64,000 nt of DNA from Candidatus Omnitrophota bacterium. Lineage in GTDB: Bacteria > Omnitrophota > Gorgyraeia > S143-82. Below are positions 28,383 through 63,998 of this stretch, piece after piece. The notes beneath the pieces were generated by a model. The model saw only the letters and a program-made list of their open reading frames with translations, was not told the DNA's origin and did not search any database. The DNA lies in assembly GCA_015494465.1 (NCBI GenBank), contig WGBD01000004.1:68627-132626 (forward strand). Direction: 5' to 3'. Within the stretch, counting starts at the first letter, position 1. Each line of letters starts with the position of its first letter. The translations under genes and the position numbers were made by a program.

Positions 28383-29779
28383 AGTCCCGGGGTCCCCTGA
28401 TAATACTTCTCTATAAACTTGGACTTTATCCTGTGCAACTGGCTGGCAGGCAGGATGGAGAGGACCTCCCAGGCGATGTTCAAGGTCTGCTCTATGGAGC
28501 GGTTCTCGTCTTTCCCCTGGGCCAGAAAGCGCTCCTCGAATGCGGAACCGAACTCCAGAAACTTCTTGTCCCTCTCGCTCAACTCCTCTTCCCCTATGAT
28601 GTCCGCAAGGCTCCTTATCCACTGGACCTCGGCATAACTGGCGTACAACTGGTTTGCGACATCGGGGTGATCCTCCCGCGTGCTCCCCTCACCGATCGCG
28701 TCCTTCATCAATCGGGAAAGGCTGGGAGGGAGGTCTATCGGCGGATATATGCCCCTCTGGTGAAGTGCCTGAGACAGAACGATTTGTCCCTCGGTTATGT
28801 ATCCGGTCAGGTCGGGTATGGGATGGGAGATGTCCATATTGGGCATCGTGAGAAACGGTATCAAGGTGATGGATCCCTCTTTCCCCTTCACCCGACCGCA
28901 CCTCTCGTAGAGGTTGGCGAGGTCGGTGTACATGTATCCGGGATAGCCCTTTCGGGACGGGACCTCGTCTCTGGAGGCGGACAACTCCCGTAAGGCCTCG
29001 CAGTAATTGGTCATGTCCCCGATTATCACCAGGACATGCATGTCCTTCTCAAAGGCAAGAAACTCCGCCAGAGTCAGGGCGCACCTGGGGGTGATTATCC
29101 TTTCCTCCGGGGGATCGTCAGCGAGGTTCAGGAACATCGTCACCTTGTCCATGTTGGCGGTGTTCTCCAATACCTCCCGGAAGAAGAGGGCCTCGTCGAA
29201 CCTTATCCCCATCGCAGCGAATACTATCGCAAACTTCTCGGTCTTTCCCGAGACCGTCGCCTGACGAATTATCTGGGCGACTATCTCGTTGTGAGGCAGG
29301 CCCGCCCCCGAGAATATCGGCAGTTTCTGACCCCGCACCAATGTGTTCATACCGTCTATAGCGCTGATACCGGTCTGGATGATGTCCCGCGGATAGTCGC
29401 GGGACATCGGATTTATCGCCAGCCCGTTTACATCCAACTCCTTCTCCGAAACCGGCATAGGATAGCCGTCTATGGGCTTGCCCAATCCGTTAAACACACG
29501 ACCAAGCATCTCTGCAGAGACCCCGAGCATAAACGGCCGTCCGAGAAACCTGACCCGTGCGCTTTCCGGCGATATACCTGCGGTCCCCTCGAATATCTGG
29601 ACCACGATGGCGGACTTGCCTGCCTCCAGGACCCTCCCCAGCCTCTTGGAACCGTCCCCCAATTCCACCTCCACCATCTCACCGTAAAAGACCCCGGGCA
29701 GGGGTGATAGCACCGCTATGGCCCCGCGCAACTCCTTGAAACTCTGGGTCTCCTTTAGCCCCTTAAAAACCGCTTCCAT
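28379..29779 (-). CDS. V/A-type ATP synthase subunit B (non-catalytic)
   Basis: 466 aa; the V-type B family pattern is conserved throughout (...[27 protein letters not shown]...). It is adjacent to and overlaps the subunit-A gene. Confidence 0.9.
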
Positions 29780-44330: not shown

Positions 44331-47300
44331 CTAAAACTCCAATCTCAAGAGGAGGTGATCCCTCTTCTTAAACTGGCCCTTTCTCCCTTCGAAGACAGGC
44401 CTGTCCCCTTCAAAGCGATAGACGAACCCATACGGGTGATAGTTTACATGAATTTTAGGGTAGTCTCTCCCAAAGCTATTTATCCTGTCCACTACCGAGG
44501 CCATCTGGCGAAGGCCTTTGACCGTGAGGTCCACGGCGATGTCTACATCTGAAGATTCCCTAAACCTACCTCTCAACAATCCACCGGTGAGGTAGATCCC
44601 CTTGGCTAACCTCTCCAAAACCAAGGGCTCGATCACTCGGAAGTAATACCGCTGAAGCTCTTCCCATATCTGCCCAAGCTCTAAGGGATTTACCATGCGT
44701 GGGAGTCGGTTCTCTGCCCTTACGAAGATCAACGGCTTAGTGACCGTTCCTCGAGAAGGTACATCTATAGAGACTTCGTCGTCAGCGACTATAATCTCAA
44801 ATGGATGGACCTCTCTCAATTGCCCCAAGACATCCTGGAGCGAATACCTCGGACGCACACCAGAGCCTTCACCTACCCAAGGCAAGATCACCAAGATTTC
44901 ACCCCGATCCCTGAGCACCCTGCTGGCCTCGGTAAAGGTGCGAACGATACCCTCTTTATCCAGACAAGACAGACTAAAGGGATAGAGGAGCAGGTCGAAG
45001 GAGGAGTTAGAAAAGGGCAGGTCCAACATGTCCGCCCGTACAACGGTAACTCCTTTTCTCCTCGCAAGCAATGGCATCTTCGGATCTATGTCGAGGCCAA
45101 TCACGAGATTTTTTCGAGCCAAAAGGGACTCAAAGCTCCCCTCTCCTGCCCCTAAAGAAAGGATCCTCTTCCCAACTATCTGCTTCCCTAAGAAATAAGA
45201 TAGCTCTGGATGGGCAGAGATGGAGAGGAGTGGATGAAAATTTCTGTGACCAGTCATAGGTGAGGATGGGGTCTCCGTCCGCTTTAGCACCAAGGAATCC
45301 CCCCACATCCCGACGATCTCGAACCGCAATCCCCTAACTATACCGTCCCAATCTATCTTCTCCACCACATCGAAAAACCAGTCGTCCATAGGCATTCTCA
45401 CATGGACCAGCTCTAGACAATCCGTTATCTCCTCTTGCCTGCGGACTACCGCCTTCACCGCACGGCTGAAGACCCTGGCCAGCAATTCGGGTCTAGTGTC
45501 TGGATGGGCCTTATTTAATTCCAAGTGGACATAAGCCTGCCTTCCATCTGGAGAATACATGACTTGAAAACGGAACAGGGGCTCGGGATAACTAGTCCCT
45601 TTTGGATTCTGGGGACCGTATTGAATAAAGTAGAGCTCGTAGAGCCCGAGAGCGCCTTCTCTGACCGCACGGAGCTCCGTGCGTACAAACGGCACGATCC
45701 TGCCCTTCCTGAGGGAGGAGGAAACTCCCTTCTGCAGTATAGAGAAGTCCTCTCCTCTCACTACCGGCGAAAATTCAGGGCCTAGCATTTCCAACCTATT
45801 CCGCACGAAAGGTTTCTCGAACGGATGGTAGAGCATCAAAAGCGCCCCCGGTCGAAGCGTTTCCTTGAATTTTTTAAACAGCTGATCCTCGTAACCGAGG
45901 TATTCTCCGCCAAAGTACTGATAGCAAGAACAGAGGAAGTAGTATATGCCGTCCGCGTCTGAGAGGTCTTTTTCCAGTGCATTCGCGTTGGAAAATTCTA
46001 CATCGGGCAGGGCTAGTCCTATTTGCCTCCCGAGCTCTCGGCTGAACGAGACCAATTCCCGATCGTACTCTATTCCCACCACCTTTGCTTGCGGAAACGC
46101 CTTTTTCAAGAGGAAGGCAACCCTCCCGTCTCCACTTCCTACCTCGTAAATCCTGCTCAATCTAATCGCGTTGGCAGAAGAGAAAAACCTCAGATCGTGA
46201 AGACCGGGTAATATCTTTAAGAGCCTGGACGGTACGAACCTGCCCATGTCCCTGACCAATCTATCCGAGATCTCCTCGTATTCGTCCAACCCTTGGATCG
46301 TCATCTCTAGCTTGCTGGCGTACTCTAACAAAGCCGGATCGCTGTAGCCAAAGCTCCTGAAGCTCCGGATCTTGACCTGATCTGGGCCCGCGGTCGTTTC
46401 TAGTCCAGAGACGACGTTAGAGAAGTCAATCCTCCCTTGAAGCGTCCGCGGGGACCCCGGCACTGCCACGCGATCCTTGATCCCGAAGGTCTCATACAAG
46501 GATGTCCTGGGCATGAACACCTGAACCGATGACACCTCCTCTTTCAACATCTCCATCAGCGCGAAGGCGAGGATTAATCTACCCAGCCCCTTTCTCCGCC
46601 ATCCGTGATTCACCCAAAAATCGAAATCCCCCCACTCTCCAATGAAAGCCCTGTCCAGATTACCCAACACGGAATACCTAAGGAGCCCGATCCTTCCGTT
46701 GCCCTTCTTCAGGTGGGCGGTTATCCACCTCTGGAACCTACTACTGGAAAGGGAAAGGGATATAGGTATCCCCTGCAAATCCAACTCCGCCAGGTCCCTT
46801 TCTACCAGAGAAGAGGCGCTCTTCTTGCGCATCTCCCGGATCCGCACATTGGAGGGGTCGGTGACCTCGGTAACGAACCCAAGACTCCTGTGAAACCAGT
46901 CCTTCCGCCACCAATTACCCCCGTAAGATAGGATCGAGACTCTATCTTGGTCTATCCCTCGAATCCCAATTCTAGAGAATAGGTCCGTTGGATATAACAG
47001 GAACAATCTAAAGTATGCGGGAGAAAGGACCTCCTTTCTGGTGCTCCCTCGCAGAGGGAGCTCACAGCCCCTCACCGACAGGAATAGATCCGCAGGATTG
47101 AGGAAAACAGCCCTTCTGCCTTCCAAGCAATCGAGTTTGAACTTGGGGACATCCTCGCCTCTTACCCAATCCTTGTTGGCCAGGAAGAGGGTCCTCAAGA
47201 GGAAGTACTTGGATACCTCGCTCTCTATCTCATCCACTAGACGACGAATCAGGGGTATCCTCTGGGAGAACGGCCTTTTGTTTTTATAAAGGGCGGACAA

Positions 47301-50300
47301 CAGATCGATCACCTCAACGTCTTTTTCCCTCAAGAGTTGGCGCATGTATTCCAGACCAGTTTCCCTTAGCTCACCGTCGCCTCCGAGTGCCATCACTCCT
47401 ACGCGCACCGAGTGAGCTTCCCCAATTAATCCCTTCAGCATAACCGCCACATCAAGGCACATAGAATCGGTGTTAGGAGAACGGATGTACCTTTCTGGAT
47501 GGAACTGACGATTGCCATTGCGCAAAGGATAGGGTATACGCATCAGGATGTCCCCACCCATGTCGAGGAATACGAACGAATGTCTCCCCGGGAGGGCGGT
47601 TCGAGCGACACCTGCCAGTCCCTTGGCCAGATCAAATCCAGACCTATTCAGGTCGAATATCACTACCTCAGCATCCTCTCCTGCGGAAGAAAATAGAGCA
47701 TAGACTCTGCTCTCCGCTAGTGGCCTACGATCTCCACCGTTCAGGTAAACATCAGGAGAATTGACTCTATAAAATCCGTCTGCACCACGCCAGCGGGGCA
47801 ATGGCCGGCCATCTCGCGTCTCTAACCTGCGGATGGGATACGGTCCTATCGCCTTCTGCTCGACAGCCCGCTTCAGATTGGGGCTGTACAGGAGGAGCTT
47901 CACATCCCTCCCTTTGGGTATACCAGGTAGGGGAATAAGTCCATCCTTGGCCAGGAGTCCTAGCAAACTGGCCCCCAATATGTCCCCTCCACCGCCCGCA
48001 GATACGATGTGCAGGTAGTGTTTGGTCCTATCCCCGGTTAAGGAGGACGGTCCAAGGTATCGCCTCCTAGAGGTATCCACATACCTGGCAAGACCGACCT
48101 CCAGATCGAGCCACAGCTCCTGCTCCCCCTCCTCTCGCTTTTTCTGTAGGTACTCGTATACCCCTCTATCCAGGATCAGACCTGGACGATACTCCTGGAA
48201 AGCCTCCACCACCCGTGCCCCCTCTAAACGGGTTAGATCAAAGCCGATCCTGAGTTGAGTCCCCTTTCGGGACTGGAGGTAGAGACAGCACTGGGCATCT
48301 CGGTACCTGTCAGGCCAATCCTTACAGAGTTGAGGGCGCCTGTCGTACAGCGCGCACCCGCACTCCACCCACAACAGATCAGGATTGTGAGGGGAGACCC
48401 TGATGTTCACCGACAGCCCTTTGCAAGGGTACTTTATCCCGAAGGTGGAGAGACTGGTATATGTCCGAACTGCAACTGCACGGTTCAACGGGGATATATT
48501 CTGAGAAAACGATCGAATAAGCCCCTCCCTAGCCAAGGCGTATCTTATGGGACCTGGGAAGAGCTCACCGGGATGGAAAAAGCAGCACAGTCCGTCTATG
48601 CAAAGTCTTCGCTCCTCTTTCACAAACGGCCAAAATACCGCTTCTTTCAAGGAGGACGCTTGAGTAGATATCCTGATCTTGCTCATCACCAGATCCTTCT
48701 CACTAACATCCCCAGGGACCCAGCGAAAGGAGGTGATGAGCTCCAGATCTCGTTGGGAGAACTGACTTACTTGCCTTGGAGAAAGACAGACCTCAACGGA
48801 CTTGACCGCCTCGGGATAGAGCAAAACCGCTCCCACAGCACCTATTACCCTCCGTATAGCGTCCCTCCCCTCGAGACCGCTCTGCAGGTAAAGGTTAATC
48901 AATCCCTCACGATATCTGCCCTTTTCGTGGACGGGCACATCCTCGTCTAGGATCCAGCTTCCGCGGTGATAACCGGTGGCCCTGGGGGGGAGCAGTCGAG
49001 AAATAGAGGCCCTCTTTATGTAGTCCGGGCCCACCATCAAGACCTTTTCCTCTTTACCAACTGCCAAGACATCGTCCTCCACCCGCAAGCCAAGCTTTTC
49101 CCCAAATTCGCGGAACTCTGCCTCTACCCGAGATGGATCGTCCATTTTCCTTCCGCTGAGCAGTATCACGCGGTTCCACGGTAGAAGGCCGTCCACATCC
49201 GAACCCGGCAGGGCCCGTTCCCTCACTATCGATCCAGTTAGGTAGATGTCGGACAACTCTACCCCTCCCATCTTCATCCAGTCTATAAACCCCTTTATCC
49301 CCAGTCTCACCAGGTGAGAATACTGCACCAAGAAGGGATCCAGCCAGGTCCATATGTGCTGAGAGCCACCACTTAAGGCCAAGGAGTTGAGGGCAACCAG
49401 GTATCCTAACACATCACCTATCCTCACCGAATCGTAGAGGTTGGAGAATAGTTCGTCCACACTATTGGTTCTAAGCGAGAACAGGCGTCTCATTCGGACA
49501 AAGCTCAGTTTAGTGGACAATAACTCGTAAGGGAAATCCCTGGATGTAATTAGACGGTACCGGCAATTGATAGGGATAGGGCCTATCAGGTTGTCAGGAG
49601 CGCGGTCTTCTTCCAAGATAATCTTGGTACCAAACATGCGCTTTCCACCTTCCCGCAGGACATCGAATACTTCTTTATCTCCTAGGATCCTCCCCAACCT
49701 AATGACATCGTCCCGCTTGGGCAGCAACCACACATACATCGCCTTCTCTAGATCTTCGGGTAAGAATCCGTACTCCAATAAAATCTTACCCAATATAGGA
49801 TTCCAAACCGCTCCCACGAGCACATCTTTGTGAGGGAACTGCGTGCGCGCCAAGGACACTATGTACCTGACGACCCTTCCACCCCACCCCCTACCTCGCT
49901 GGTGGACCTCTAAATAAGGGATAAATATAGCCTCCTTGGTATTCACGATCCCCACGGTGGCAACGGTCCTACCCATCTCGTCAGCAATCTTTAGTTTTTG
50001 GACGAAGGAATTATCGTTCAACGAGGAACTGACCTTATCTACGAACTCCCTAGGGCTCGTCTCTCGGAATATGTCCAGATCTCCTGCTGAGATGTAGCCT
50101 CCCTGCAAGAGGGAAGACCTTACCCAGCCCTTAAAGTGCTTCCACGAACTGTCCGGGAAGAGGTTTACCTCCGAGGCGTGGGATATCTTCTTGGTTTGGA
50201 TAAGCGTAGATACATCCAAGACCGAGTTGAGGGTAAGTATGTCCGGGAGGAAGGCGTATATCCCGCTCTGGGAGAAAGAGGAGACCAACCACTTGCGGGT

Positions 50301-59300: not shown

Positions 59301-62300
59301 TTGGACCATCCGTTTGGTAAGGGACTGCAGTGGCTTTCTCAAAGCAAACCGGGCAGGGAGGGCAACCGCATCGTAGAGGAGAGAGATGTCCAACAGGACC
59401 TCCGCGCTGTCCACCGCCCGAACGAAGAGAGGCTCTGATTCACCTCTCGCACGGGAGACCGCCTCAAACCGGGTCCCGACACTCCCTTCCCTCAAGGCCC
59501 TGACGAGCCCGCTCATCTCCGGAGATACCAAGGAAAGCGGTTGAGAGGCCCAGCCCACCAGCCGGTATCCCAGTCCCGTGGGTCTATAACTGCCCTTCTC
59601 GGGGGAGTATTCCAGCACGCCCTTGCCGTCTGGTCCGTATATCCTCTTGGGCAGTCCCGCTTTTATCCTCGCCAGTTTCCCTCCGGGAGATAAGGAATAA
59701 TACTGCTTATTACTGCCTTCCAAGATGTACCTTGCCAGAAACGATACCTCCCCCGCCCACTCCCTTGCCCGGAAAAACCTCGGCCTGAATATCGGAAGCC
59801 CCCTCTCGTCGCTCCCCAGATACACATAGTCCCTCCCGACCCTATCCTTCCAGGTCCCTCCAAATATGTGGTAATACGATTGACCGGGAGAGGGCAGCAG
59901 GGCACCGTTCCTGACCCGCATCAGCCCGGGCACCACCACCTCTACCGCCGGTACACCCTCAAATGTGTCCTCCAGTGAGACCAATGCCGGGAGATGGGAA
60001 AAGACCTTGGTATCTTTCAGATTAGCGGAAGAGATCCCTTTCTTCCGCCCCGCCTCCGGAAACGAGACTATACCCTGACCGACCTCCACCACCACATCCG
60101 GACTGTAGATTTCCACCTCCACCTCACCGGAATCCGACCTGCCTATACGAGAGGGGAGTCTGAGCATCGCCAGTCCAAAGGGCAGGCCGGAGCCCTCCAC
60201 ATACTGATACTCACCGAGGAACTTCAGGCCCTCCACATCCCCCAAGAGTTTGAACCGCCAACTTCCCTTTGCTCCGTTCTTACCTCCCATTCCAGACCGA
60301 TAAGAACCCTCCCCCCGGAGGCGAAAACCGAGCGTCGGGGCCCAGAAGACCTCCCCGGGCAAGACATAACCCGCCCGGGATAGGGCAATCTTCCGGGAAA
60401 GTGCTTTTGACCTGCCGTGCAAGTCCAAGAAGAGGCTCTCCTTCCCCCGATAGGGATCTATACGCTCCAGTTCAAAGGTAACCCGCCGAAACTGACGGGG
60501 GACGATCCTCTCCAGATCCTTTTTGAGGAGTTGAGCGAGGATCTCTCTCTTCTCCCGGGCAGATATGTTCCGGTCATAGGCCACCCGGGCGAGCATCTCC
60601 GCCAGCCTGTCCCCGTACTTATAACCGTCGGAGAGAATGTGTCGGTTCAGGACTTTGACCGCCTCAGCGTCGCCCAAGCGCAGGGAGTTCCAGACTCGAT
60701 CGAGAAGATAATCCACCACATCCGACCGGGTGGCAAAGAAGATGCGCCTTTCTCCCACCGGGATCCCCGATGACCTGAGGCTATCCAACACCATACCTAG
60801 GTACAATCCCTTGCTACCCAATCCCAATATCCTGTGGTTCAAGTCAATCTCCAGCATCCCGTCCCGCAGGGAAAGACCCACACCTTTCTCCCCCCGCAGG
60901 GCCCTGCGGATACCCTCCCTCTCCTGAGGGGGTAGAGATACATCCACAAGGGAAAGGAATGCCTTCCTCCCCGAAGCACTTTTATACCCCCTGTTCACAG
61001 CCATGTACACCGCGGAGTTGATCGCCACCGGCACCACTGAAGGTATCCCTCTGATACCGGGTGAGTAGTTCTCCTTCTCCACCCACTTACCGTTCTCCTC
61101 AACGAGGGGCAGGGAATACCCCTGAGAGGCATACCACCTGGAGGTGAGAAAGAGCCGTCGGGCCCGACCGGAGGTGTAGAGGGGATAGTCCACGAACAAC
61201 AACGGGAGCCCCATGCCTCCGTTGGGAAGACCCTGCGCATTGACCAGCGGGGCGGAGTGGCTTATCCGTTTCCCGGACCGGCCAAAGCCCTTGGCAAAGA
61301 GCCCGACACCATTGGTGAAGTCCCGGGAACCGAGCATCTCAAACAGGTGAACCACGATAAACGAACTGAACGCACAGTCCTGTTCCTGCATCGCCTTATA
61401 CGAAGAGAAGATCTGAGCAAGGGCCATGTCGTGCAGGGTCTTTTTAGAGATCTCTTTTACCTTATTTGAATAAGGCCGGGGCAAAAACGACCTCATCGCA
61501 GGGGAGGTCTTTGCGATTTCCTTGGAAAGTTCCCTCACCGTCATCTCCTTTATGTCCACCTCCGTCTTGCCCAGCACCCTGGCGATCCGTGCTATCCACA
61601 CAGGTACTATCATCCCTTCTCGCTCGAGATTACCTATCTTCTCGTCGAGCGACCCTCTCATACGATTCAACAAAGGACGGAACTCCTGCAGGAGGAGGCT
61701 ATCCAACAGCGCCTGCACCTTTTCCTCGTATCCGGGCTCTGCGGTATCTATCTTCTTCACCCCCTCCTCAAACCTCTCCATCACCCGCGCCAGTGCCTTT
61801 CGTTCCAGCCCCATCCTCTGCATAACCTTGCCTGCGGGCTCAACCGATCTGGCAGAGATCACCATCCAATCCCCGTCGAACTGCTTTCCCACCAAGGCAT
61901 CCGCAACCCGCTGGACCTTACCCAGCCAGAAGGGGCCAGAATCACCCGCAACCTCCAGCATCCTCTGGCTTTTTGGCTCTAGCCGACCCCTTTCATCGGT
62001 AAATACCCGAAAGACATCAACCAAGACAGGGGAAAACTCCCTTGGCGTGTCCATGTCGTAAAGGTAGAAGGTAGAGATCCTCGGGAAGGTCATCGTGTGC
62101 CTCGCAAAGTCCAAGGTCATCTTCCCGTCCACGGGAGAGATCGCCTTCAGCCTACCGGTGGTATCCCGGAAGAGGTAGACCCCAGTCCGCTCCTTCCTAC
62201 CAAGCCAGGTGGTAAGAGAATACACCTTCTTTATCCCCTCTCCCCGACCGAGATAGCGGATCTTATTCCCGGATAGGGTCACGAAGAAACTGACCCAACC

Positions 62301-63998
62301 CCTGCGGGCGGATACCTGATAGAGATTGGAAAAGTTCCCTATGGGGGTCAAGATCAACTCGGCCTTCACTGGGTAGAGAGGAGATCTCGCCTCTGCCTTT
62401 ATCTCCCGAAGCGGATTCAAGTCCACCACCTCGATCCCTGCTTTGGTAAAGGCGTAAATACCATTCTTCGTCGGCAAGAGAATCGCCTTGGTCTTTACAC
62501 GGTAATGTAGGGAGTTGGTGGAGAGTTCAGCTTCGTAGCTGGCATTCGCCCTAGGGCTTGGGGTAAGTCCGAAAAGGGAAACGCGATTGCGGTCCACCAC
62601 CGCTGCCCAGAACTGCCCACCACTAGCAGGGCAGAATCGATGGGAAAGAGAGGCCTTGCTCCTTCCCTTCAGCTCTAATTCGCCTACCTCCATCCTGCCG
62701 TTGAAGAGGGCCTCGCGGTGCCGAATCTCTATCAATTCCACCTCTTCTCTGGCGGTGATGGGCCTGCTCCAGCGGGCAAGCATGTACCCTTGCGAAGAGT
62801 ACCTGCCCTTCTGGTCCACGAGCAGGCCGTTGCTCATCTCCAGAGAGAGTGGGAGGGAGTGGAGTCTGCCCTTCGCATCGATCCTGTACCTGAAGACCTT
62901 GGAGGCCTTGGAGCTCGCCGGGAGGAGGATGTCCACTGCACCCCTGCGATCCCAGATCACATCCCTGCCCGTCTCGTTGACGATCCGCACATTCCTAAGG
63001 GCCAAGCGGTCGTAGGCCTGCCCCCCGACCCGCTGGACGAATACCGGAAGCCTGTCCGCTATAACCACCCGGGGAAACGGCCCATCGAGGGCATCTTTCA
63101 AGCGGACCTCCAACTGGGTCTTTAGGTGGTCTCCCTTCAGACCTCTATCTTTTTTGGGGAGAGAGGTAAGATAAGGAGAGATAAACGCACCCCGCTCCAA
63201 AAGGTGGACTATCCTGCCGGAGTTGGATAGGCGTTGACCGGATACGGAGGCCATACCTGAGTAGACGAACCGCTCTTTGCCCTTCTCGTCCAAGCGGATA
63301 ACCCTCTGGAATACCCGGGAACTGAACCCCCGAAAGTCTGCATCTATCCCCCGCACCTTTCTCCCCACCAGCTCGTATGCGGTGTAGAGCTGGTCGTACT
63401 TCCGCTCGATCAGGATCGTCTCCTTACCCTCCTTGAGGCTCTGAACGACCAGAGGATCACCCTTAAATCTCTCCCTCCTCAACAATAATGCCCGTTTACC
63501 TCTCAATCCCTCGTCCTGAAACTCCACCCAACCTCCGTTAGACAAGGCCCCGATCCAGGTATCTTGGGCGAGGTGGAACTGTTGGTCTCTGGCAACCTCG
63601 TAGATCCCCCCCTTCCTTTTAGTGACGGTCGGTCTGACGAAGGCCAGCCGTGCCCCATCAGAGAAGTTGGGGGTGAGGGGATCAGCTACCACGAGCTTAG
63701 GCGTGAAGTAGAGGTCCATGTAGGCCCGATTGGTACGGACCCAATCGGGACTTATCACCTCCCGGACCCAGATGGTACGGGGTTTAACGGGGCTCGGGGC
63801 GGATCGCAGTGCGGGAGAAGATGCCCCAGAACGCCCCCTCTTTTTGAATGTATGAGGAGAGGTAAGGAAGAACTCGTCCTCTATCCTCAACCGTATCCGC
63901 CCATCGGAGAAGAGCTCTGCAGAGAACAGCTTGTCAGGGGAAACCTCTCTCTTGACCGCCCCAGGGTTGGGCCTCTTGCTCCTAAACTCGTAGGCCAT
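44331..63998 (-). CDS. Giant multidomain protein of at least 6555 aa, probably 5'-truncated by the window edge. It is a mosaic of modifying-enzyme domains: 3 GNAT, 2 Pol-beta NTase, an APH-like kinase, 2 SAM methyltransferases, a LOG/SLOG domain and an arginase/deacetylase-like domain.
   Basis: A single uninterrupted reading frame of 19.67 kb on the minus strand, ending at a TAA (44331-44333), 15 nt upstream of the next gene's start. Domain motifs are listed in the sub-features below. The first ATG sits 2 nt from the window end, so the true N-terminus is unknown. Confidence 0.85.
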   Translation of the reverse strand: MAYEFRSKRPNPGAVKREVSPDKLFSAELFSDGRIRLRIEDEFFLTSPHTFKKRGRSGASSPALRSAPSPVKPRTIWVREVISPDWVRTNRAYMDLYFTPKLVVADPLTPNFSDGARLAFVRPTVTKRKGGIYEVARDQQFHLAQDTWIGALSNGGWVEFQDEGLRGKRALLLRRERFKGDPLVVQSLKEGKETILIERKYDQLYTAYELVGRKVRGIDADFRGFSSRVFQRVIRLDEKGKERFVYSGMASVSGQRLSNSGRIVHLLERGAFISPYLTSLPKKDRGLKGDHLKTQLEVRLKDALDGPFPRVVIADRLPVFVQRVGGQAYDRLALRNVRIVNETGRDVIWDRRGAVDILLPASSKASKVFRYRIDAKGRLHSLPLSLEMSNGLLVDQKGRYSSQGYMLARWSRPITAREEVELIEIRHREALFNGRMEVGELELKGRSKASLSHRFCPASGGQFWAAVVDRNRVSLFGLTPSPRANASYEAELSTNSLHYRVKTKAILLPTKNGIYAFTKAGIEVVDLNPLREIKAEARSPLYPVKAELILTPIGNFSNLYQVSARRGWVSFFVTLSGNKIRYLGRGEGIKKVYSLTTWLGRKERTGVYLFRDTTGRLKAISPVDGKMTLDFARHTMTFPRISTFYLYDMDTPREFSPVLVDVFRVFTDERGRLEPKSQRMLEVAGDSGPFWLGKVQRVADALVGKQFDGDWMVISARSVEPAGKVMQRMGLERKALARVMERFEEGVKKIDTAEPGYEEKVQALLDSLLLQEFRPLLNRMRGSLDEKIGNLEREGMIVPVWIARIARVLGKTEVDIKEMTVRELSKEIAKTSPAMRSFLPRPYSNKVKEISKKTLHDMALAQIFSSYKAMQEQDCAFSSFIVVHLFEMLGSRDFTNGVGLFAKGFGRSGKRISHSAPLVNAQGLPNGGMGLPLLFVDYPLYTSGRARRLFLTSRWYASQGYSLPLVEENGKWVEKENYSPGIRGIPSVVPVAINSAVYMAVNRGYKSASGRKAFLSLVDVSLPPQEREGIRRALRGEKGVGLSLRDGMLEIDLNHRILGLGSKGLYLGMVLDSLRSSGIPVGERRIFFATRSDVVDYLLDRVWNSLRLGDAEAVKVLNRHILSDGYKYGDRLAEMLARVAYDRNISAREKREILAQLLKKDLERIVPRQFRRVTFELERIDPYRGKESLFLDLHGRSKALSRKIALSRAGYVLPGEVFWAPTLGFRLRGEGSYRSGMGGKNGAKGSWRFKLLGDVEGLKFLGEYQYVEGSGLPFGLAMLRLPSRIGRSDSGEVEVEIYSPDVVVEVGQGIVSFPEAGRKKGISSANLKDTKVFSHLPALVSLEDTFEGVPAVEVVVPGLMRVRNGALLPSPGQSYYHIFGGTWKDRVGRDYVYLGSDERGLPIFRPRFFRAREWAGEVSFLARYILEGSNKQYYSLSPGGKLARIKAGLPKRIYGPDGKGVLEYSPEKGSYRPTGLGYRLVGWASQPLSLVSPEMSGLVRALREGSVGTRFEAVSRARGESEPLFVRAVDSAEVLLDISLLYDAVALPARFALRKPLQSLTKRMVQKTLSLPLKGYEGVGLAVARGLEFIDGGRVLSKVAYRYPKAVAGLSHTALALGLEGRYDSETYISDLRSGRVSPGGALLHRAFFLPARLISQDRVKNNLELSLLLQASRKANSPALAGAVVGIVDASVITGSLSPVILLARHPVESTKEFFSSLRDILTPATSLEEADRARMGYLAGLLAGAYRGYRAMGAEISAGQVRGLSYLGGVYRSSGDLVLMGIGFNIGVSAMRSGLTGANPDFFLRALSSAVQNGTDLVGSAFAGEFLFASGFKSIGYAKALVRRSPVYRLSFRRPEVARKASTALMAGGALAYGSSLLLPNRSEYRRASVLLSNLGLIGFGVGGLWRLGINRIIASRRAEIRALSVPARLYEHARDSALLVSSSTSLFYGTRNLLLNKVAEITGRESSAERSELPYILLTSPLVVTSVLIADRVGGRFRYSPGRGGFTGVKEWILADTRGARAGFYRELDLWRYAERDRSVLSRMRGADYLLQSAVPFGIGVYMDAKGRDDWAGLFYSLGGVMAIAGLSRMGLGYAVVKRRLSPRVAARISSLVHHYGVERTLIPAASTLFLVMPALHTAVVGTSYLYRRYALPYARSEVERGVFGVLSAFSDDTAVGRLKTVMSRPGIVNKAFGLLDYSLGMTLFGTSTAKGKGVRDIMPSAYAFSLMMGPLMGPSQAFLKGIRKGDFGRIYRSAGEALETVSSFGLRDLRLGRPRPALSLMGRARDVVLKGTMEEVVAEQLIGLGLSPWTSALAVAGVPGTMFLQELLEEVMTPGGSAYEDDNWAPLFRAIAKGRSVAGELYLPYESPQAGVPQKVVLRNWSDVLRLPEGARFRYDTKDGRREVTAGDDIFRTARIMQTFELYREEGIDDETVAEVLATPVGPFNGVDEVQRSAMGMILGEKLSREELLSEAPVIEFGGRRLLKEEVLPEIALYYSLISEGDVEESDSPELSAYARILSGKNAELGYASLMDLQLGRSEERIYRSSTSSEAVRGLGAYALEEIRRELEYIGNKDRLALPRYAQEFVDTGRAFRRMSPEDLRRLEKHKGSSAEEFWSAVRRAHIKALKRTLSHPTFSLWEAEAVETAWRLRQVHPSSVGEDTVFAVDKGGYALVWNKGGRVKKVSFSGISLLDDAELGPATRGGEVYFNAGRWFRAEVPRLLRDYYGVKGHVLVQVDPALYGTETKVNVVPGFGYRLFVSENLAKEINRNPHLLTPTLISAFVRFDRRRTVLQRASNLAEFLRLPVDKKSKAYLGVRRALTNPKGRALYADKEALWELASSLRVEEDRLSRVLRGGVYRRIDRAVSIAKKRRQDLTRKGEGVDTAFVRELLDWLEKGRPVSVKTSERAEVLAELAYYDEVLRSRWIAGVASSEEGNYAHLNKRVAELERMVEQAPAIGQEHRLLASIDYLVNRAGDEYTGRSVERLRRAYTYWLKRQTIEQVDARGLFLRALEEVANSSWWSVGQKARFMRDYQRLISTIKGAEGSDWGSVVRSLKREFPDSLVQKELPEEVEVRAVLNPALDHGGWAQLTPEKRIEVEVRGFEKVSGRAGLVPYDQSLTGIIVPHELTHIILDFVGRRYGLSGLSIGDDRTDEIIHRIVDPSSLKRLPIYAWAETTGSRGPGSAHRSAMGDGAVSWGSGDPGLPSPRSGGTSSSLVSRDEKRPEPRTRIELAMFKYGLSPRDWRIRDISDRVSHVVAIVDKKTGIPRFVLKHSPWHYPGALWEVELLDSFRRIDATFPVPRYRLNQAIQSITLVSGDKFLLYDWVDGVRLAEINEAHRNEGARVLARFHAYGLLFRPRRGWRNYDRIGSFMGPNDRRLPRLLRGYQRISSKKDLGRGERLFLDYWETFRDEVERLRKSYPGIWPVLPKTVIHGDFALRNLLWRDGKIALVADLDTARIETRIFDLVRADSFYGWGSGDRNEVLNGLADWLIRYHYYADELGLGLREAEIRAIRHMVGIFGVVQYLWLLRFGSMELVDRYDSAYQDFSNRLSLSRALLKFEGWKDWEESVLRELRLLSPRTSSSLADEGVSLVSWPELPEDRKESAIRLVEKAQKYFGESYPVVRREDLLRDKIFALSGKRVVGFISYHLSDLGLDNRIGIPPFLKVGEVFVEETYRGKGIDKKLFFSLLSLAEDRGVLQLETSTVVPRREPLSFWQKVVDRVNQMGRWKARILPYLGREGLYVSIERQRSSSALREDPLRDRVNKRVIESILRNRARMWRKVGSLEEIVQGLELGDYPVLGRAGIYPGEVRFWQGLFDQYDPSTTEMYSYGLKENLLLELPQRIIAVVDDQHYGFGVVSYAVKRGIVPQGANMLHIDDHKDLNDLTDPGLLPELEALVRDLSPNDAAHHRALLSNLDVGNWIRPLITLGLVSERNWRGVMVKLPSMDLRYYDLRGETTLPLKTWPSLIGRLRSDWGIETDRGRWIDILDVDLDFVRESFSWAEREHRLLVEELIPKAKVVILATSPGYIAQKRAIGLARQFLAGVGTSSSLRRVISSRGLDVVGLESALKRASTLLGARITLVGSARYLLPRGETHLPLTLVGDLDLVVHDSWITREHRVVKAINRALSRMNPFGDRILRNGERWELQSLGYIGRALGLKAMKVDLVCNERFAEEQRRLAQRHLPTVMYILRTYRKGSLVRQAVKRAIWIMEELAYPESDRVDWMKRELIARASDEVVPEGLRQELLKRMQELHTWLQTKSSASSINQRRLVREFRSIERLGRRMKGPTLVVFGSARVKPEERAYASVREITHYLARAGFNVLTGAGPGIMTAGNEGAFRANPERSCGIGILIPGEPKNPYLLDKNQTKCKYFLTRQTGLIRLANAVLVGPGGLGTLNEVVDVLAMGKHREVPHLPIAFLDESFYSGFVNFLNELVEKKRLAHIRLRSISTVRGWEDSAEFYSKNTPLPPRAGMDKVWRFVGDVLRADATIQKLAPANEIVSVLVPSKEDVMTYYNRRIYTSAEWMIKHLLRSNKRVLLQVGKRLRLLTKKSSTEIPYEYSFTRKWLVSSFSQSGIYAFLPDILTLNSVLDVSTLIQTKKISHASEVNLFPDSSWKHFKGWVRSSLLQGGYISAGDLDIFRETSPREFVDKVSSSLNDNSFVQKLKIADEMGRTVATVGIVNTKEAIFIPYLEVHQRGRGWGGRVVRYIVSLARTQFPHKDVLVGAVWNPILGKILLEYGFLPEDLEKAMYVWLLPKRDDVIRLGRILGDKEVFDVLREGGKRMFGTKIILEEDRAPDNLIGPIPINCRYRLITSRDFPYELLSTKLSFVRMRRLFSLRTNSVDELFSNLYDSVRIGDVLGYLVALNSLALSGGSQHIWTWLDPFLVQYSHLVRLGIKGFIDWMKMGGVELSDIYLTGSIVRERALPGSDVDGLLPWNRVILLSGRKMDDPSRVEAEFREFGEKLGLRVEDDVLAVGKEEKVLMVGPDYIKRASISRLLPPRATGYHRGSWILDEDVPVHEKGRYREGLINLYLQSGLEGRDAIRRVIGAVGAVLLYPEAVKSVEVCLSPRQVSQFSQRDLELITSFRWVPGDVSEKDLVMSKIRISTQASSLKEAVFWPFVKEERRLCIDGLCCFFHPGELFPGPIRYALAREGLIRSFSQNISPLNRAVAVRTYTSLSTFGIKYPCKGLSVNIRVSPHNPDLLWVECGCALYDRRPQLCKDWPDRYRDAQCCLYLQSRKGTQLRIGFDLTRLEGARVVEAFQEYRPGLILDRGVYEYLQKKREEGEQELWLDLEVGLARYVDTSRRRYLGPSSLTGDRTKHYLHIVSAGGGGDILGASLLGLLAKDGLIPLPGIPKGRDVKLLLYSPNLKRAVEQKAIGPYPIRRLETRDGRPLPRWRGADGFYRVNSPDVYLNGGDRRPLAESRVYALFSSAGEDAEVVIFDLNRSGFDLAKGLAGVARTALPGRHSFVFLDMGGDILMRIPYPLRNGNRQFHPERYIRSPNTDSMCLDVAVMLKGLIGEAHSVRVGVMALGGDGELRETGLEYMRQLLREKDVEVIDLLSALYKNKRPFSQRIPLIRRLVDEIESEVSKYFLLRTLFLANKDWVRGEDVPKFKLDCLEGRRAVFLNPADLFLSVRGCELPLRGSTRKEVLSPAYFRLFLLYPTDLFSRIGIRGIDQDRVSILSYGGNWWRKDWFHRSLGFVTEVTDPSNVRIREMRKKSASSLVERDLAELDLQGIPISLSLSSSRFQRWITAHLKKGNGRIGLLRYSVLGNLDRAFIGEWGDFDFWVNHGWRRKGLGRLILAFALMEMLKEEVSSVQVFMPRTSLYETFGIKDRVAVPGSPRTLQGRIDFSNVVSGLETTAGPDQVKIRSFRSFGYSDPALLEYASKLEMTIQGLDEYEEISDRLVRDMGRFVPSRLLKILPGLHDLRFFSSANAIRLSRIYEVGSGDGRVAFLLKKAFPQAKVVGIEYDRELVSFSRELGRQIGLALPDVEFSNANALEKDLSDADGIYYFLCSCYQYFGGEYLGYEDQLFKKFKETLRPGALLMLYHPFEKPFVRNRLEMLGPEFSPVVRGEDFSILQKGVSSSLRKGRIVPFVRTELRAVREGALGLYELYFIQYGPQNPKGTSYPEPLFRFQVMYSPDGRQAYVHLELNKAHPDTRPELLARVFSRAVKAVVRRQEEITDCLELVHVRMPMDDWFFDVVEKIDWDGIVRGLRFEIVGMWGDSLVLKRTETPSSPMTGHRNFHPLLSISAHPELSYFLGKQIVGKRILSLGAGEGSFESLLARKNLVIGLDIDPKMPLLARRKGVTVVRADMLDLPFSNSSFDLLLYPFSLSCLDKEGIVRTFTEASRVLRDRGEILVILPWVGEGSGVRPRYSLQDVLGQLREVHPFEIIVADDEVSIDVPSRGTVTKPLIFVRAENRLPRMVNPLELGQIWEELQRYYFRVIEPLVLERLAKGIYLTGGLLRGRFRESSDVDIAVDLTVKGLRQMASVVDRINSFGRDYPKIHVNYHPYGFVYRFEGDRPVFEGRKGQFKKRDHLLLRLEF
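44334..44700 (-). other. Giant-ORF domain: C-terminal minimal nucleotidyltransferase (Pol-beta superfamily)
   Basis: GIYLTGGLLRGRFRESSDVDIAVDL fits the hG[GS]x9-13Dh[DE]h motif. Confidence 0.7.
44770..45255 (-). other. Giant-ORF domain: class I SAM-dependent methyltransferase (Methyltransf_11-like)
   Basis: Motif I ILSLGAGEGSF; acidic end of beta2 GLDID; post-I motif VVRADMLDLPFSNSSFDLLL. Confidence 0.65.
45730..46275 (-). other. Giant-ORF domain: second class I SAM-dependent methyltransferase
   Basis: Motif I RIYEVGSGDGRVA; GIEYD; LEKDLSDADGIYYFL. Confidence 0.6.
46450..46725 (-). other. Giant-ORF domain: GNAT acetyltransferase-like
   Basis: Motif A WVNHGWRRKGLGRLILAFAL (verified on the minus strand at nt ~46600-46645). 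Confidence 0.6.
49030..49365 (-). other. Giant-ORF domain: nucleotidyltransferase (Pol-beta superfamily), internal copy
   Basis: IYLTGSIVRERALPGSDVDGLL. Confidence 0.6.
49690..50025 (-). other. Giant-ORF domain: GNAT acetyltransferase-like
   Basis: LEVHQRGRGWGGRVVRYIVSLA (Q/RxxGxG/A acetyl-CoA-binding motif). Confidence 0.55.
50650..51134 (-). other. Giant-ORF domain: LOG / TIGR00730 (Lysine_decarbox, SLOG) Rossmann-fold domain
   Basis: MKGPTLVVFGSARV...TGAGPGIMTAGNEGA...VLVGPGGLGTLNEVVD (both GGxGxM and PGGxGTxxE motifs). Coordinates verified on the nucleotide sequence (ATG at 51134-51132). Confidence 0.7.
51850..52545 (-). other. Giant-ORF domain: arginase/ureohydrolase- or deacetylase-like fold (tentative)
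   Basis: IIAVVDDQHYGFG ... ANMLHIDDHKDLND (DxHxD) ... WIDILDVDLDFV (SxDxDxxDP-like). The match to the three ureohydrolase motifs is imperfect. Confidence 0.4.
52840..53145 (-). other. Giant-ORF domain: GNAT acetyltransferase-like
   Basis: RVVGFISYHL...VGEVFVEETYRGKGIDKKLFFSLLSLAEDRG. Confidence 0.55.
53350..54225 (-). other. Giant-ORF domain: aminoglycoside-phosphotransferase / protein-kinase-like fold
   Basis: Brenner motif VIHGDFALRNLL (HGDxxxxN) followed by IALVADLDTA (DFG-equivalent Asp); verified at nt ~53665-53700. Confidence 0.6.

Follow-up and report, generated by a model that had tools for sequence, protein, structure and literature searches.

A giant multi-enzyme gene of an Omnitrophota bacterium, tentatively read as encoding a membrane-anchored carrier of enzyme cargo

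A 64,000-nucleotide stretch of DNA from a Candidatus Omnitrophota bacterium (hereafter the window) ends in one minus-strand frame that stays open for 19.67 kb and reads as a mosaic of enzyme motifs. Is this frame a genuine gene and, if so, what would a protein with so many activities on one chain do? The gene and its two large neighbours are arranged as follows:

44331..63998, minus strand: giant gene, 3' 6,555 codons plus stop of an 8,047-aa call (translation; orthologue under purifying selection)
39348..44315, minus strand: N1, 1,655 aa; signal peptide plus a tandem pair of SidJ-like kinase-fold modules; starts (ATG) 15 nt past the stop of the giant gene
34290..39197, minus strand: N2, about 1,632 aa; hydrophobic segment at the N-terminus, CheR-type methyltransferase domain at the C-terminus (HMM, hydropathy)

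Translation of positions 44334–63998 on the minus strand gives a single stop-free frame of 6,555 residues. Calculated from base composition, the probability of finding no stop in 6,555 codons is ~1e-122, and each of the remaining five frames contains 119–380 stops. GC at codon positions 1, 2 and 3 is 0.57, 0.43 and 0.66, resembling the neighbouring genes, and the coding-like bias is kept in every 666-codon block of the frame. The uninterrupted, coding-like frame of the original prediction is thus confirmed, as are its normal stop (TAG, 44331–44333) just ahead of N1 and its suspicion that the gene runs past the window edge. On contig JALUEM010000002.1, which is 99.93% identical to the window, the gene call is 8,047 aa (24.1 kb), and about 1,490 N-terminal residues therefore lie beyond the window. 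Residue numbers below are those of the window ORF; adding 1,492 converts them to full-length numbering.

An orthologue with conserved synteny, which the original prediction had suggested searching for, is present in a sister species on contig L010 (83–85% DNA identity). Its frame is open across all 3,327 codons reached, and the gene order around it is conserved between the two species, in a housekeeping context. The two giant proteins are 69% identical, with an overall dN/dS of 0.156 and values of 0.07–0.25 for individual segments where dS is estimable, domain-free segments included. This open frame and its level of constraint indicate a functional gene. In the same comparison, N1 and N2 are 73–80% identical and the housekeeping neighbours 93–98%; fast evolution that is nevertheless constrained, as in the giant gene, N1 and N2, is the pattern expected of interaction proteins. 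Contig L010 is part of MAG JALVHK, which is classified as p__Omnitrophota;c__Koll11 (PMC9793634, supplement 1) and whose lineage comes from deep-sea vent deposits (PMC9793634). Placement through this sister MAG is indirect but strong evidence that the host is a thermophilic deep-sea-vent member of the Omnitrophota, class Koll11 in the GTDB release used.

Mis-assembly can produce giant ORFs in MAGs, the sequence stems from short-read metagenomes, and in related assemblies contigs break within or beside the gene. However, the frame is uninterrupted in three independent near-identical assemblies and open in a species that is 17% divergent in DNA (dN/dS 0.16), and the window ORF has no internal repeats able to mislead an assembler. 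With the negligible chance of a stop-free frame and the coding bias over its full length, these observations effectively refute an artefact of assembly, an array of pseudogenes or an erroneous fusion in the gene call. The window ORF covers the 3' 81% of a gene of 8,047 codons that is genuine and maintained by selection.

N1 and N2 both start with signal-like segments, in agreement with the proposal that the adjacent large proteins are secreted, and the giant gene apparently forms an operon with these two secreted proteins of ~1,650 aa. The first module of N1 matches the SidJ-related pseudokinase family (E 1.4e-15; 57 bits against a cut-off of 300), and the only PDB matches of N1 are structures of the SidJ kinase-like domain (E 2.5e-6). 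N1 resembles SidJ, the calmodulin-dependent glutamylase of Legionella, in this domain match, but differs from it in having two tandem modules, 1,655 aa and a Sec signal, and no calmodulin-binding region was identified in N1. As predicted cofactor-dependent enzymes, N1 and N2 would make little sense outside a cell. The genes past N2 are housekeeping genes; an adenylating acyl-CoA ligase that follows N2 resembles ordinary FadD and scores 456 bits against the long-chain-fatty-acid-CoA ligase subfamily. The giant gene has no secretion or translocation machinery beside it (PilC/GspF is ~36 kb off), and no integrase or transposase was seen in its chromosomal context.

The N-terminal part of the window ORF is divided as follows:

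59022..63998, minus strand: region without detectable relatives, aa 1-1659 (no family or PDB match; no similarity to P0002–P0006, see below)
56859..59021, minus strand: Gly/Ala-rich, weakly hydrophobic, apparently all-helical module, aa 1660-2380 (conserved in other Omnitrophota giant proteins)
54468..55832, minus strand: module with a stand-alone 536-aa homologue, P0001, aa 2723-3177 (conserved core with HExxH)
54279..54458, minus strand: low-complexity G/S/P/R-rich linker from the N-terminal part to the enzyme array, aa 3181-3240 (sequence composition)

No Pfam or NCBIfam family matches the first ~3,200 residues of the window ORF, and additional scans of aa 1-700 found nothing. Nevertheless, the N-terminal ~3100 residues, originally described as free of recognisable motifs, contain two conserved modules. 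The module at aa 1660-2380 carries the motifs TLFxVIPxLHxVVEGTS, FAAFWDD, DFGRxFRA, KGTxEEVxxEQ and EIxQEVxSPxG. A simple hydropathy scan places 8 of the 19 moderately hydrophobic segments here, all within aa 1676-2323 and including the three strongest, although they are weak (Kyte-Doolittle 1.3–1.8). The density of small-xxx-small motifs is 4.3 per 100 aa in this module versus 0.8–1.7 elsewhere, and charged residues are rarer than in the rest of the protein. Judged by composition and motifs, aa 1660-2380 is probably a glycine-zipper-like membrane-type module of ~700 aa, and the long N-terminal part as a whole appears mostly helical.

We ran an exhaustive phmmer search with aa 2000-3180 against 1.84 billion representatives, which returned six hits. 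Five are proteins of 1,257–6,788 aa, four of them labelled Omnitrophota or Omnitrophica, and four of these relatives are truncated by contig ends. In this search the membrane-type module is otherwise found only in other Omnitrophota giant proteins, the label of the fifth of these proteins, P0003, ending after 'Candidatus' with the phylum name not shown. In P0002 and P0003, which share the module, a TM segment and a C39 peptidase stand at the N-terminus.

The second module, aa 2723-3177, has the conserved core HGGWA...VPHExxHIILxFxG...GLSIGDDxxDxxxHR, in which HExxH is a putative metallopeptidase-like site, and it precedes the 60-aa disordered linker. Neither conserved module is present on viral contigs. 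A low-confidence AF2 model of the membrane-type module (pLDDT 34) suggests helices and has no fold match, and the model of the HExxH module has a pLDDT of 51, likewise with no fold match; the names 'membrane module' and 'metallopeptidase' are thus based on composition and motifs.

Past the linker, the chain is a succession of enzyme-like domains:

53520..54254, minus strand: APH/CotS-type kinase, aa 3249-3493 (HMM; HGDFALRN ... DLD)
52881..53093, minus strand: GNAT acetyltransferase 1, aa 3636-3706 (HMM and motif)
51999..52454, minus strand: UPF0489 / arginase-deacetylase-like domain, aa 3849-4000 (HMM; HIDDHKD, DILDVDLD)
50640..51116, minus strand: LOG / TIGR00730 domain, aa 4295-4453 (HMM, PDB match; PGGLGTLNE)
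49869..49904, minus strand: GNAT-like RGRGWGG motif (second GNAT), aa 4699-4710 (motif only; invariant in the sister species)
49026..49253, minus strand: Pol-beta-type nucleotidyltransferase (NTase) 1, aa 4916-4991 (HMM; GSx10GSDVDG)
48285..48602, minus strand: Cys-rich segment, aa 5133-5238 (resembles the YkgJ/UPF0153 CxxCxxCC family by motif reading)
47202..48041, minus strand: DUF1152 domain, aa ~5320-5599 (HMM covers aa 5442-5599; start at ~5320 from motif SAGGGGD)
46482..46697, minus strand: GNAT acetyltransferase 3, aa 5768-5839 (weak HMM; motif RRKGLG)
45831..46154, minus strand: class-I SAM methyltransferase 1, aa 5949-6056 (HMM; best PDB sequence match 5BXY)
44892..45164, minus strand: class-I SAM methyltransferase 2, aa 6279-6369 (HMM and motif)
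44517..44606, minus strand: weak MNT-type nucleotidyltransferase 2, aa 6465-6494 (HMM 19.2 bits; motif)

The mosaic character proposed for the C-terminal half (kinase, GNAT, nucleotidyltransferase, methyltransferase, LOG, arginase/deacetylase-like) is reproduced by HMM matches, the individual motif-based calls faring unequally. Those for the APH, LOG, methyltransferase, GNAT-1 and UPF0489 domains held up. The APH domain matches with E 2e-17, its best named match being the CotS spore-coat kinase (2e-8), and the two methyltransferases match with E 3e-15 and 2e-14. GNAT-1 has E 7e-9 for a 3,555-aa piece, a score that possibly pools GNAT copies, and 22.8–23.5 bits in tiles against a cut-off of 20.7. 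UPF0489 reaches 28.3 bits and DUF1152 30.9 bits, each against a cut-off of 27. The LOG domain matches in Pfam (E 1e-16; 56–61 bits against a cut-off of 27), in TIGR00730 (E 8e-23; 81 bits, under the whole-protein cut-off of 96) and among PDB LOG chains (E 4e-23 to 6e-25). With its conserved PGGxGTxxE motif, a Rossmann-type G-rich loop and these family and solved-structure matches, it is a predicted LOG / TIGR00730 family enzyme.

The other calls fall below cut-off or are weak (NTase-1, 20.6 bits, slightly under 21; NTase-2; GNAT-3, 18.6 bits), and the second GNAT motif, HQRGRGWGG, has no HMM support. NTase-1 is at the same time the most constrained segment of the protein (dN/dS 0.07). All motif strings first read from the translation were found in place and are kept in the sister species, except for the catalytic motif of NTase-2, where DVG in the sister replaces the DVD of the window. 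Apart from NTase-2 and a deviation of GNAT-1 in the window copy, the cofactor-binding motifs of the array are intact and conserved. The Cys-rich segment has no HMM match; every one of its cysteines is invariant in the sister species. Judging from motifs and profiles, the array comprises at least ten separate enzyme domains (kinase, two to three GNATs, two NTases, two methyltransferases, LOG, UPF0489 and DUF1152), that is, seven types with at most three copies each. Glycoside hydrolase, glycosyltransferase, adhesin and SecA domains, present in many of the Omnitrophota giants published so far, were not detected in HMM scans of the 6,555-aa window part.

The original prediction held this architecture to be undescribed, but giant ORFs, similar domain lists and a 'multi-enzyme' class have already been published for Omnitrophota. 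Giant ORFs of more than 20 kb are a documented hallmark of the phylum; Velamenicoccus archaeovorus expresses a 39,678-aa protein with 42 predicted TM helices, and a role of such proteins in symbiotic or predatory cell contact is suspected (Seymour et al. 2023, PMC10066038). Our protein belongs to the same phylum, has membrane-type segments, few annotated domains over long stretches and poor sequence conservation, and is encoded by an ORF above 20 kb (19.67 kb seen directly in the window; 24.1 kb from the call on the near-identical contig). Unlike the V. archaeovorus protein, it is far shorter, shows by simple hydropathy a single cluster of weakly hydrophobic segments against 42 predicted TM helices, comes from a thermophilic vent lineage and lacks adhesin-type domains in its window part.

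Methyltransferase, GNAT, Lysine_decarbox/LOG and kinase-type domains have been listed for Omnitrophota giant proteins, some of which carry N-terminal C39 domains (West-Roberts et al. 2023, 10.1101/2023.11.21.568195). The Archaeovorins of that study have at least 30,000 aa, glycosyltransferase, glycoside hydrolase, peptidase, NUDIX and HEAT/TPR domains, a divergent SecA DEAD helicase, a C39/S8 peptidase near the N-terminus and numerous TM helices, and 5BXY is cited for one of their segments (10.1101/2023.11.21.568195). The giant protein shares with them the methyltransferase, GNAT and Lysine_decarbox (LOG) mosaic, a long unannotated N-terminal region and 5BXY as the nearest PDB entry for methyltransferase 1; the C39 start is a feature of two of its relatives with the membrane-type module. 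With 8,047 aa, however, it is below the 30,000-aa threshold, and its 6,555 window residues contain no glycosyltransferase, glycoside hydrolase, NUDIX, HEAT/TPR or SecA-DEAD domain, their peptidase-like content being the unclassified HExxH module. It also differs in having an APH/CotS kinase, Pol-beta NTases, UPF0489 and DUF1152.

A catalogue of long Omnitrophota proteins (at least 10,000 aa, 80% sequence-unique) defines a 'multi-enzyme' class and a C39 architecture cluster (10.64898/2026.06.07.730766). As in that class, many distinct Pfam families tile the chain and none dominates by copy number, PF08241 and PF00583 co-occur, and the protein is sequence-unique. It is nevertheless shorter than the 10,000 aa of the catalogue and lacks the sugar-metabolism and histidine-kinase modules of the class.

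MARTX proteins are multi-effector toxins with an internal processing protease. By analogy, the giant protein may have a protease module and linker ahead of its cargo, but there is no homology to MARTX repeats or to the MARTX cysteine protease domain. Several unrelated enzymatic 'warheads' on one fast-evolving chain are common to MARTX and to the polyvalent proteins of phages and conjugative elements, for which 2–15 domains are described (Iyer et al. 2017, PMC5512222). Unlike polyvalent proteins, this one is encoded on the chromosome, among housekeeping genes whose order is kept in two species, has no relatives on viral contigs and matches defence and phage families only through generic folds.

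We are highly confident of the identity part of our explanation, namely a real gene for an Omnitrophota giant multi-enzyme protein. The whole statement, in which this protein is a membrane-anchored carrier of enzyme cargo for cell–cell interaction, is tentative, with somewhat less than an even chance of being correct. The N-terminal part would serve as a chassis, anchoring the protein in a membrane or inserting it there where the producer touches a host or prey cell, and the C-terminal array would be polyvalent cargo. Since this cargo needs ATP, NTPs, acetyl-CoA and SAM, it could work only in a cytoplasm. We favour the cytoplasm of the target cell, reached after a translocation step that we purely infer, and regard this part as more doubtful than the whole. 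The HExxH module possibly cleaves at the linker beforehand, and N1, with its two SidJ-like kinase-fold modules, and N2, with its CheR-like methyltransferase, may act alongside. Transfer of giant proteins between species in a bacterial consortium is reported in one preprint (10.64898/2026.03.19.712371).

An unlikely but serious alternative is a tethered regulatory or metabolic multi-enzyme scaffold that acts on nucleotides, proteins or envelope precursors of the producing cell itself. There, ATP, NTP, acetyl-CoA and SAM are all on hand, LOG-type enzymes are ordinary enzymes of nucleotide metabolism, the window part shows no secretion signal, and secretion machinery is absent beside the gene. 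In addition, 46% of long Omnitrophota proteins are 'TM-only', and the methyltransferase/GNAT module is read as cytoplasmic-face content (10.64898/2026.06.07.730766). A scaffold nevertheless leaves unexplained the fast divergence relative to housekeeping genes, the HExxH module before a disordered linker and the tight coupling to two secreted ATP/SAM-dependent enzyme types, and the window part shows no metabolic pathway logic or sugar-metabolism domains. Improbable is a post-translational modification machine that decorates proteins or peptides, with N1/N2 or a RiPP-like product as substrates. The weak matches do lean towards such substrates (CotS, 2e-8; peptide arginase FlmR/OhkR, 2e-3; archaeal protein-lysine methyltransferase, 8e-5; daptide RiPP methyltransferase, 6e-4; PDB matches to L11 and protein-lysine methyltransferases), the neighbours are of protein-modifying families (SidJ-like protein glutamylase fold, CheR-type methyltransferase), and an adenylating enzyme lies after N2. 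However, the named matches are far under family cut-offs and concern very generic folds, the ligase looks like ordinary FadD, and no precursor peptide, RiPP recognition element, cyclase or transporter was found. Moreover, N1 and N2 have Sec-type signals and would therefore leave the compartment in which the array works.

A polyvalent conflict or defence protein, anti-phage or on a mobile element, would be analogous to polyvalent proteins or toxin-antitoxin modules. GNAT, MNT-type NTase, kinase, SLOG/LOG and methyltransferase domains recur in conflict systems, and the C-terminus weakly matches MntA-type and PDC-S09 models. We consider a role of this kind very improbable: PADLOC gives only a generic methyltransferase (mad2) and two weak PDC-S09 matches (E ~6e-3, C-terminal NTase), PHROGs only generic LOG/DprA-like, acetyltransferase and methyltransferase matches, the conserved modules are absent from viral contigs, gene order is conserved in a housekeeping context free of any integrase or transposase seen, and the second NTase lacks a catalytic Asp in the sister species. 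Fractionally less probable again is a multi-step assembly for the modification or detoxification of antibiotics or glycosides of the aminoglycoside type, an analogy drawn originally from the joint occurrence of phosphotransferase, acetyltransferase and nucleotidyltransferase chemistries. The APH, GNAT and NTase superfamilies are vast and mostly unconnected with resistance. The analogy is not supported: no NCBIfam resistance model matches at E <= 0.01, although the library includes such models (vanH matches SerA), the closest named relative of the kinase is CotS, and an 8,047-aa membrane-associated chassis would be superfluous for detoxification. The analysis gave no support to antibiotic modification, a role in phage defence or an artefactual origin.

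Our preferred, tentative reading is the membrane-anchored carrier of enzyme cargo. Among the three functions originally proposed (small-molecule modification or detoxification, a polyvalent effector or immunity protein, and a processive modifier of a polymeric substrate), the polyvalent effector fits best, though not decisively. The protein is of the 'many different enzymes on one chain' type within the giant-ORF class of Omnitrophota. Since the phylum is already known for giant mosaic proteins, the giant gene is a well-preserved new example of a known, functionally unsolved class.

The giant gene forms a stop-free frame of 6,555 residues on the minus strand (window 44334-63998) that ends in a TAG stop codon at 44331-44333. 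The ATG of N1, the first of two large genes that follow on the same strand, lies 15 nt later and is preceded by a GGAAGG-type ribosome-binding site. At the local base composition, 6,555 stop-free codons would arise by chance with a probability of about 1e-122. Each of the five other frames has 119-380 stops, and the GC content at codon positions 1, 2 and 3 (0.57/0.43/0.66) is coding-like in all 10 consecutive blocks and similar to that of the neighbouring genes, in agreement with the original prediction of a real, uninterrupted frame. GC3 declines steadily along the gene (N-terminal blocks 0.70, C-terminus 0.59, housekeeping neighbours 0.70-0.74); the enzyme cargo may have been acquired later, or codon selection on it may be weaker.

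The ATG at the window edge is not the start of the gene, and the frame runs off the window. N1 has an exact match on NCBI contig JALUEM010000002.1 (781,960 bp), where the upstream gene, at roughly positions 630,700-654,900, is called with 8,047 aa. Since this contig and the window share 99.93% identity and do not differ inside the giant gene, about 1,492 N-terminal residues lie outside the window, and the proposed extension past its edge is thereby confirmed. An ENA scaffold is 99.96% identical to the window, and the frame agrees in all three assemblies. Residue numbers below are those of the window ORF (add 1,492 for full length). Contig scans of genomes and metagenomes with window-ORF residues 1-700 gave no match, and we found neither internal repeats in the giant protein nor similarity between it and N1 or N2.

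HMM scans of overlapping tiles gave the following domain order for the C-terminal part (aa 3241-6555).

Domains of the enzyme array (all encoded on the minus strand)
aa 3249-3493, minus: APH-type kinase, HMM E 2e-17
aa 3636-3706, minus: GNAT, HMM above cut-off
aa 3849-3940, minus: UPF0489, 28 bits (cut-off 27)
aa 4295-4453, minus: LOG, HMM E 1e-16
aa 4699-4710, minus: second "GNAT", RGRGWGG, motif only
aa 4916-4991, minus: Pol-beta nucleotidyltransferase (NTase-1), 20.6 bits, just under the cut-off of 21
aa 5442-5599, minus: DUF1152, 31 bits (cut-off 27), start at about aa 5320 by motif
aa 5768-5839, minus: weak GNAT, 18.6 bits, below cut-off
aa 5949-6056, minus: class-I methyltransferase, HMM E 3e-15
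aa 6279-6369, minus: class-I methyltransferase, HMM E 2e-14
aa 6465-6494 (window 44517-44606), minus: weak MNT-type nucleotidyltransferase (NTase-2), 19.2 bits, below cut-off

Independent matches to TIGR00730 (8e-23) and to solved LOG structures (4e-23 to 6e-25) confirm the LOG domain. The domain calls made earlier from the sequence are largely right, except that the second GNAT remains motif-only and that the GNAT at aa 5768-5839 and both nucleotidyltransferases score below cut-off. All motifs quoted at that time are present and are conserved in a sister species, a related vent Omnitrophota with an orthologue of the giant gene, with the exception of NTase-2, whose catalytic DVD is replaced by DVG in the sister species (contig L012); judged from this substitution, NTase-2 may be decaying or non-catalytic. 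A Cys-rich segment (aa 5133-5238; window 48285-48602, minus strand) reads LCIDGLCC, then ECGCALYDRRPQLCKDWP, then CCLY, and every cysteine is invariant between the two species. By eye it resembles the CxxCxxCC metal-binding family YkgJ/UPF0153; HMM searches gave no support for this assignment. The sole match to a two-species profile of the enzyme half in a metagenome scan is a stand-alone 284-aa UPF0489-like ORF. This ORF (L013:3210-4064, on a JGI metagenome contig) is 25% identical to the corresponding segment of the giant protein (E 8e-19) and contains the MLHIDDH motif.

Related assemblies from other vent samples share about 83.5% DNA identity with the window and keep the gene order giant gene, N1, N2, acyl-CoA ligase, DUF763, V/A-ATPase A and B, pyrE, amidase, murI and queD/C/E/F. 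On JBPNJZ010000046.1, whose end truncates the orthologue (called with 3,870 aa), we read the last 9,985 nt of this gene; the frame is open over 3,327 of 3,327 codons, with 69.2% protein identity. Over these codons the overall dN/dS between window and sister species is 0.156. The domain-free segments are constrained as strongly as the domains: dN/dS is 0.156 for aa 4454-4915 and 0.155 for aa 4992-5441 (81% identity), compared with 0.11 for LOG and 0.07 for NTase-1. Conservation is lowest in aa 6057-6278 (43% identity with the sister species).

Divergence of the neighbouring genes
N1: 73% protein identity, dN/dS 0.17
N2: 80% protein identity, dN/dS 0.20
Housekeeping neighbours: 85-98% protein identity, dN/dS 0.02-0.12

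The low dN/dS, the open orthologue frame and the faster divergence relative to the housekeeping neighbours establish that the giant gene is kept by selection, yet is fast-evolving. An assembly artefact or pseudogene array, which the original prediction had listed as an alternative, is ruled out for practical purposes by the low dN/dS and by a frame that is intact in the near-identical assemblies as well as in the sister species.

The assembly that holds the syntenic sister-species contig (L010), JALVHK000000000, is listed in supplement 1 of Zhou et al. 2022 (PMC9793634) as MAG A1_maxbin2_scaf2bin.396 (d__Bacteria;p__Omnitrophota;c__Koll11, order unassigned; 2.6 Mb, 52% GC, 73% complete), and the window genome is placed in class Koll11 by its close relationship to this MAG. 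The sample codes suggest a deep-sea hydrothermal-deposit origin.

Residues 1-3240 have no match in Pfam, NCBIfam, PHROGs or PDB sequences. When aa 2000-3180 were compared exhaustively by phmmer with 1.84 billion cluster representatives, only six proteins were retrieved (P0001-P0006). Five of these have lengths of 1,257-6,788 aa, and contig ends truncate four of the five; GenBank labels them Candidatus Omnitrophota or Omnitrophica, except that the name of P0003 breaks off at 'Candidatus'. P0002 and P0003 begin with a hydrophobic segment followed by a C39 peptidase domain. A word-indexed protein search gave 0 matches, and there a profile of P0002-P0006 missed these same proteins, which are representatives in that library, so that its negatives carry no weight. 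The giant protein's own cluster is seemingly absent from the search libraries (no self-match), and negative results of these searches are not equivalent to an absence of relatives.

The giant protein and the five large matches share a module of about 700 aa (aa ~1660-2380) at 24-29% identity, with the sharply conserved motifs TLFxVIPxLHxVVEGTS, ERxFxxxFAAFWDD, NIKxxDFGRxFRA, KGTxEEVxxEQ and EIxQEVxSPxG. In a simple hydropathy scan, which is the basis for all topology given here, 8 of the 19 moderately hydrophobic segments of the giant protein, including the three strongest, fall within this module. It is rich in Gly and Ala, contains fewer charged residues and has 4.3 small-xxx-small-xxx-small motifs per 100 aa, compared with 0.8-1.7 elsewhere. 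We read it as a putative glycine-zipper-like membrane module. AlphaFold2 with the six-sequence alignment reached a pLDDT of 34. This membrane-type module is newly delineated, common to Omnitrophota giants and absent from Pfam.

The sixth match, P0001, is a stand-alone protein of 536 aa that aligns to aa 2723-3177 with a pairwise E-value of 3e-46. It is encoded on two short contigs (L004:135-1745 and L005:162-1772), one from the same metagenome and one from another vent MAG (GCA_015520885.1), and has no match in Pfam, PADLOC or PHROG. Its host is a Lys/Ile/Asn-rich, apparently AT-rich organism. The conserved core, HGGWA...VPHExxHIILxFxG...GLSIGDDxxDxxxHR, includes the HELTH motif that had been noticed from the sequence, and this conservation suggests a putative metal-dependent hydrolase site. 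AlphaFold2 with three sequences gave a pLDDT of 51 (core <50), Foldseek found no fold match in the PDB (best E 0.9, TM ~0.1), and sequence and profile searches of the PDB with the dark region and the HExxH core gave no match. Directly after this module, aa 3181-3240 form the protein's only clearly low-complexity stretch, and the enzyme array comes next.

With high confidence, we assign the giant protein to the Omnitrophota giant-ORF class because it fits the published picture and because a homologous module recurs in other Omnitrophota giants. ORFs of >20 kb, with few annotated domains and poor conservation, occur in most Omnitrophota lineages (Seymour et al., PMC10066038). West-Roberts et al. 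(10.1101/2023.11.21.568195) report mosaic proteins that combine methyltransferase, GNAT and Lysine_decarbox domains, as well as many TM segments and unannotated N-terminal regions with C39 peptidases. A 2026 preprint (10.64898/2026.06.07.730766) defines a 'multi-enzyme' class as well as a module in which methyltransferase and GNAT co-occur, and finds 80% of long proteins to be sequence singletons. The architecture, originally thought to be undescribed, thus has precedent in Omnitrophota giant multi-enzyme proteins, and the protein is a new, compact, thermophilic member of this known, enigmatic family. Most examples have 30,000-150,000 aa, are poorly conserved and are hard to study. In contrast, the giant protein, at 8 kaa, is relatively small and of thermophilic origin; its domains are sharply bounded, and its second-species orthologue reveals selection on every segment of the 3,327 codons compared.

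Loci in the neighbourhood of the giant gene
window 39348-44315, minus: N1, 1,655 aa, signal peptide, two tandem ~580-aa modules (30% identity, E 1e-32)
window 34290-39197, minus: N2, ~1,632 aa, hydrophobic N-terminal segment
window 28379-31544, minus: V/A-type ATPase A and B genes alone
window 2824-8060, plus: 1,182-aa protein, N-terminal GGDEF, long unannotated remainder

The first module of N1 matches a SidJ-related pseudokinase family (E 1.4e-15), and a three-sequence N1 profile searched against the whole PDB retrieves SidJ structures only (E 2.5e-6); a contig scan with an N1 profile gave no match. SidJ is a Legionella effector that works inside host cells, and it is unusual for a non-pathogen to secrete a kinase-fold or glutamylase-like enzyme. 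The sole recognisable domain of N2 is a C-terminal CheR-type SAM methyltransferase. N2 and the genes for a FadD-like acyl-CoA ligase and a DUF763 protein are translationally coupled, with gaps of 3-4 nt, and the 150-nt N1-N2 spacer contains a promoter-like site with 10/12 matches. Genes further downstream are housekeeping. The ATPase A and B genes, with no C, D, E, F, I or K subunit genes nearby, are followed by pyrE, amidase_3, murI and queuosine genes, as in the sister species. In the literature, Omnitrophota giant genes often have type II/IV secretion genes close by; here, the closest secretion gene encodes a PilC/GspF-type platform protein about 36 kb from the giant gene, downstream of the GGDEF gene at a similar distance.

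Every recognisable cargo domain uses ATP, NTP, acetyl-CoA or SAM or acts on nucleotides, which argues that the array works in a cytoplasm. With low to moderate confidence, we favour a chassis-plus-cargo model in which the cargo would be active in a partner or prey cell, because evolution is fast yet constrained, the membrane-type module is common to other giants, the putative hydrolase module lies just before a disordered linker, and the apparent operon encodes two secreted proteins of cofactor-dependent enzyme types, of which one is akin to a Legionella effector. The main rival places the array on the producer's own cytoplasmic face as a tethered multi-enzyme, the location that the 2026 preprint proposes for 'TM-only' giants (10.64898/2026.06.07.730766).

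The other readings are poorly supported or unsupported. For a defence or polyvalent conflict protein, defence-system and phage libraries returned only generic fold matches and two weak PDC-S09 matches. Scans for the membrane-type and HExxH modules found neither on viral contigs, no mobile-element genes were seen around the giant gene, and a phage or plasmid polyvalent protein is rejected on these grounds. The antibiotic-modifying assembly of the original prediction finds no counterpart among the NCBIfam antibiotic-resistance models, none of which matched the giant protein; an aminoglycoside-resistance assembly is likewise rejected. For a protein or peptide modification machine, the matches to the named sub-families CotS kinase, peptide arginase and protein-lysine methyltransferase are, like that to MntA, all far under cut-off.

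In its fullest form, the chassis-plus-cargo model would make the giant protein, N1 and N2 an effector system that depends on cell contact and belongs to a thermophilic epibiont or predator of the Omnitrophota, a scheme that we consider unlikely. The glycine-zipper module would serve as a membrane-insertion and translocation device, and the HExxH module would cut the linker. Cleavage would free an enzyme battery of about 3,300 aa (kinase, GNATs, nucleotidyltransferases, methyltransferases, a LOG-type nucleotide hydrolase and an arginase-like domain) into the victim cytoplasm, where it would be fuelled by the victim's ATP, acetyl-CoA and SAM and accompanied by the secreted SidJ-like and CheR-like enzymes.

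Omnitrophota giant proteins are documented, and their function is unsolved. The present example offers a conserved membrane-type module, an HExxH module before a linker as a candidate processing site, and a compact array of individually expressible enzymes beside secreted SidJ-like and CheR-like proteins. If the chassis-plus-cargo model is wrong, this is merely another lineage-specific giant ORF; if it is right, the protein would be a tractable model for giant-protein function, and a true effector role would give Omnitrophota giants a 'chassis plus cargo' logic comparable to that of multi-effector toxins.
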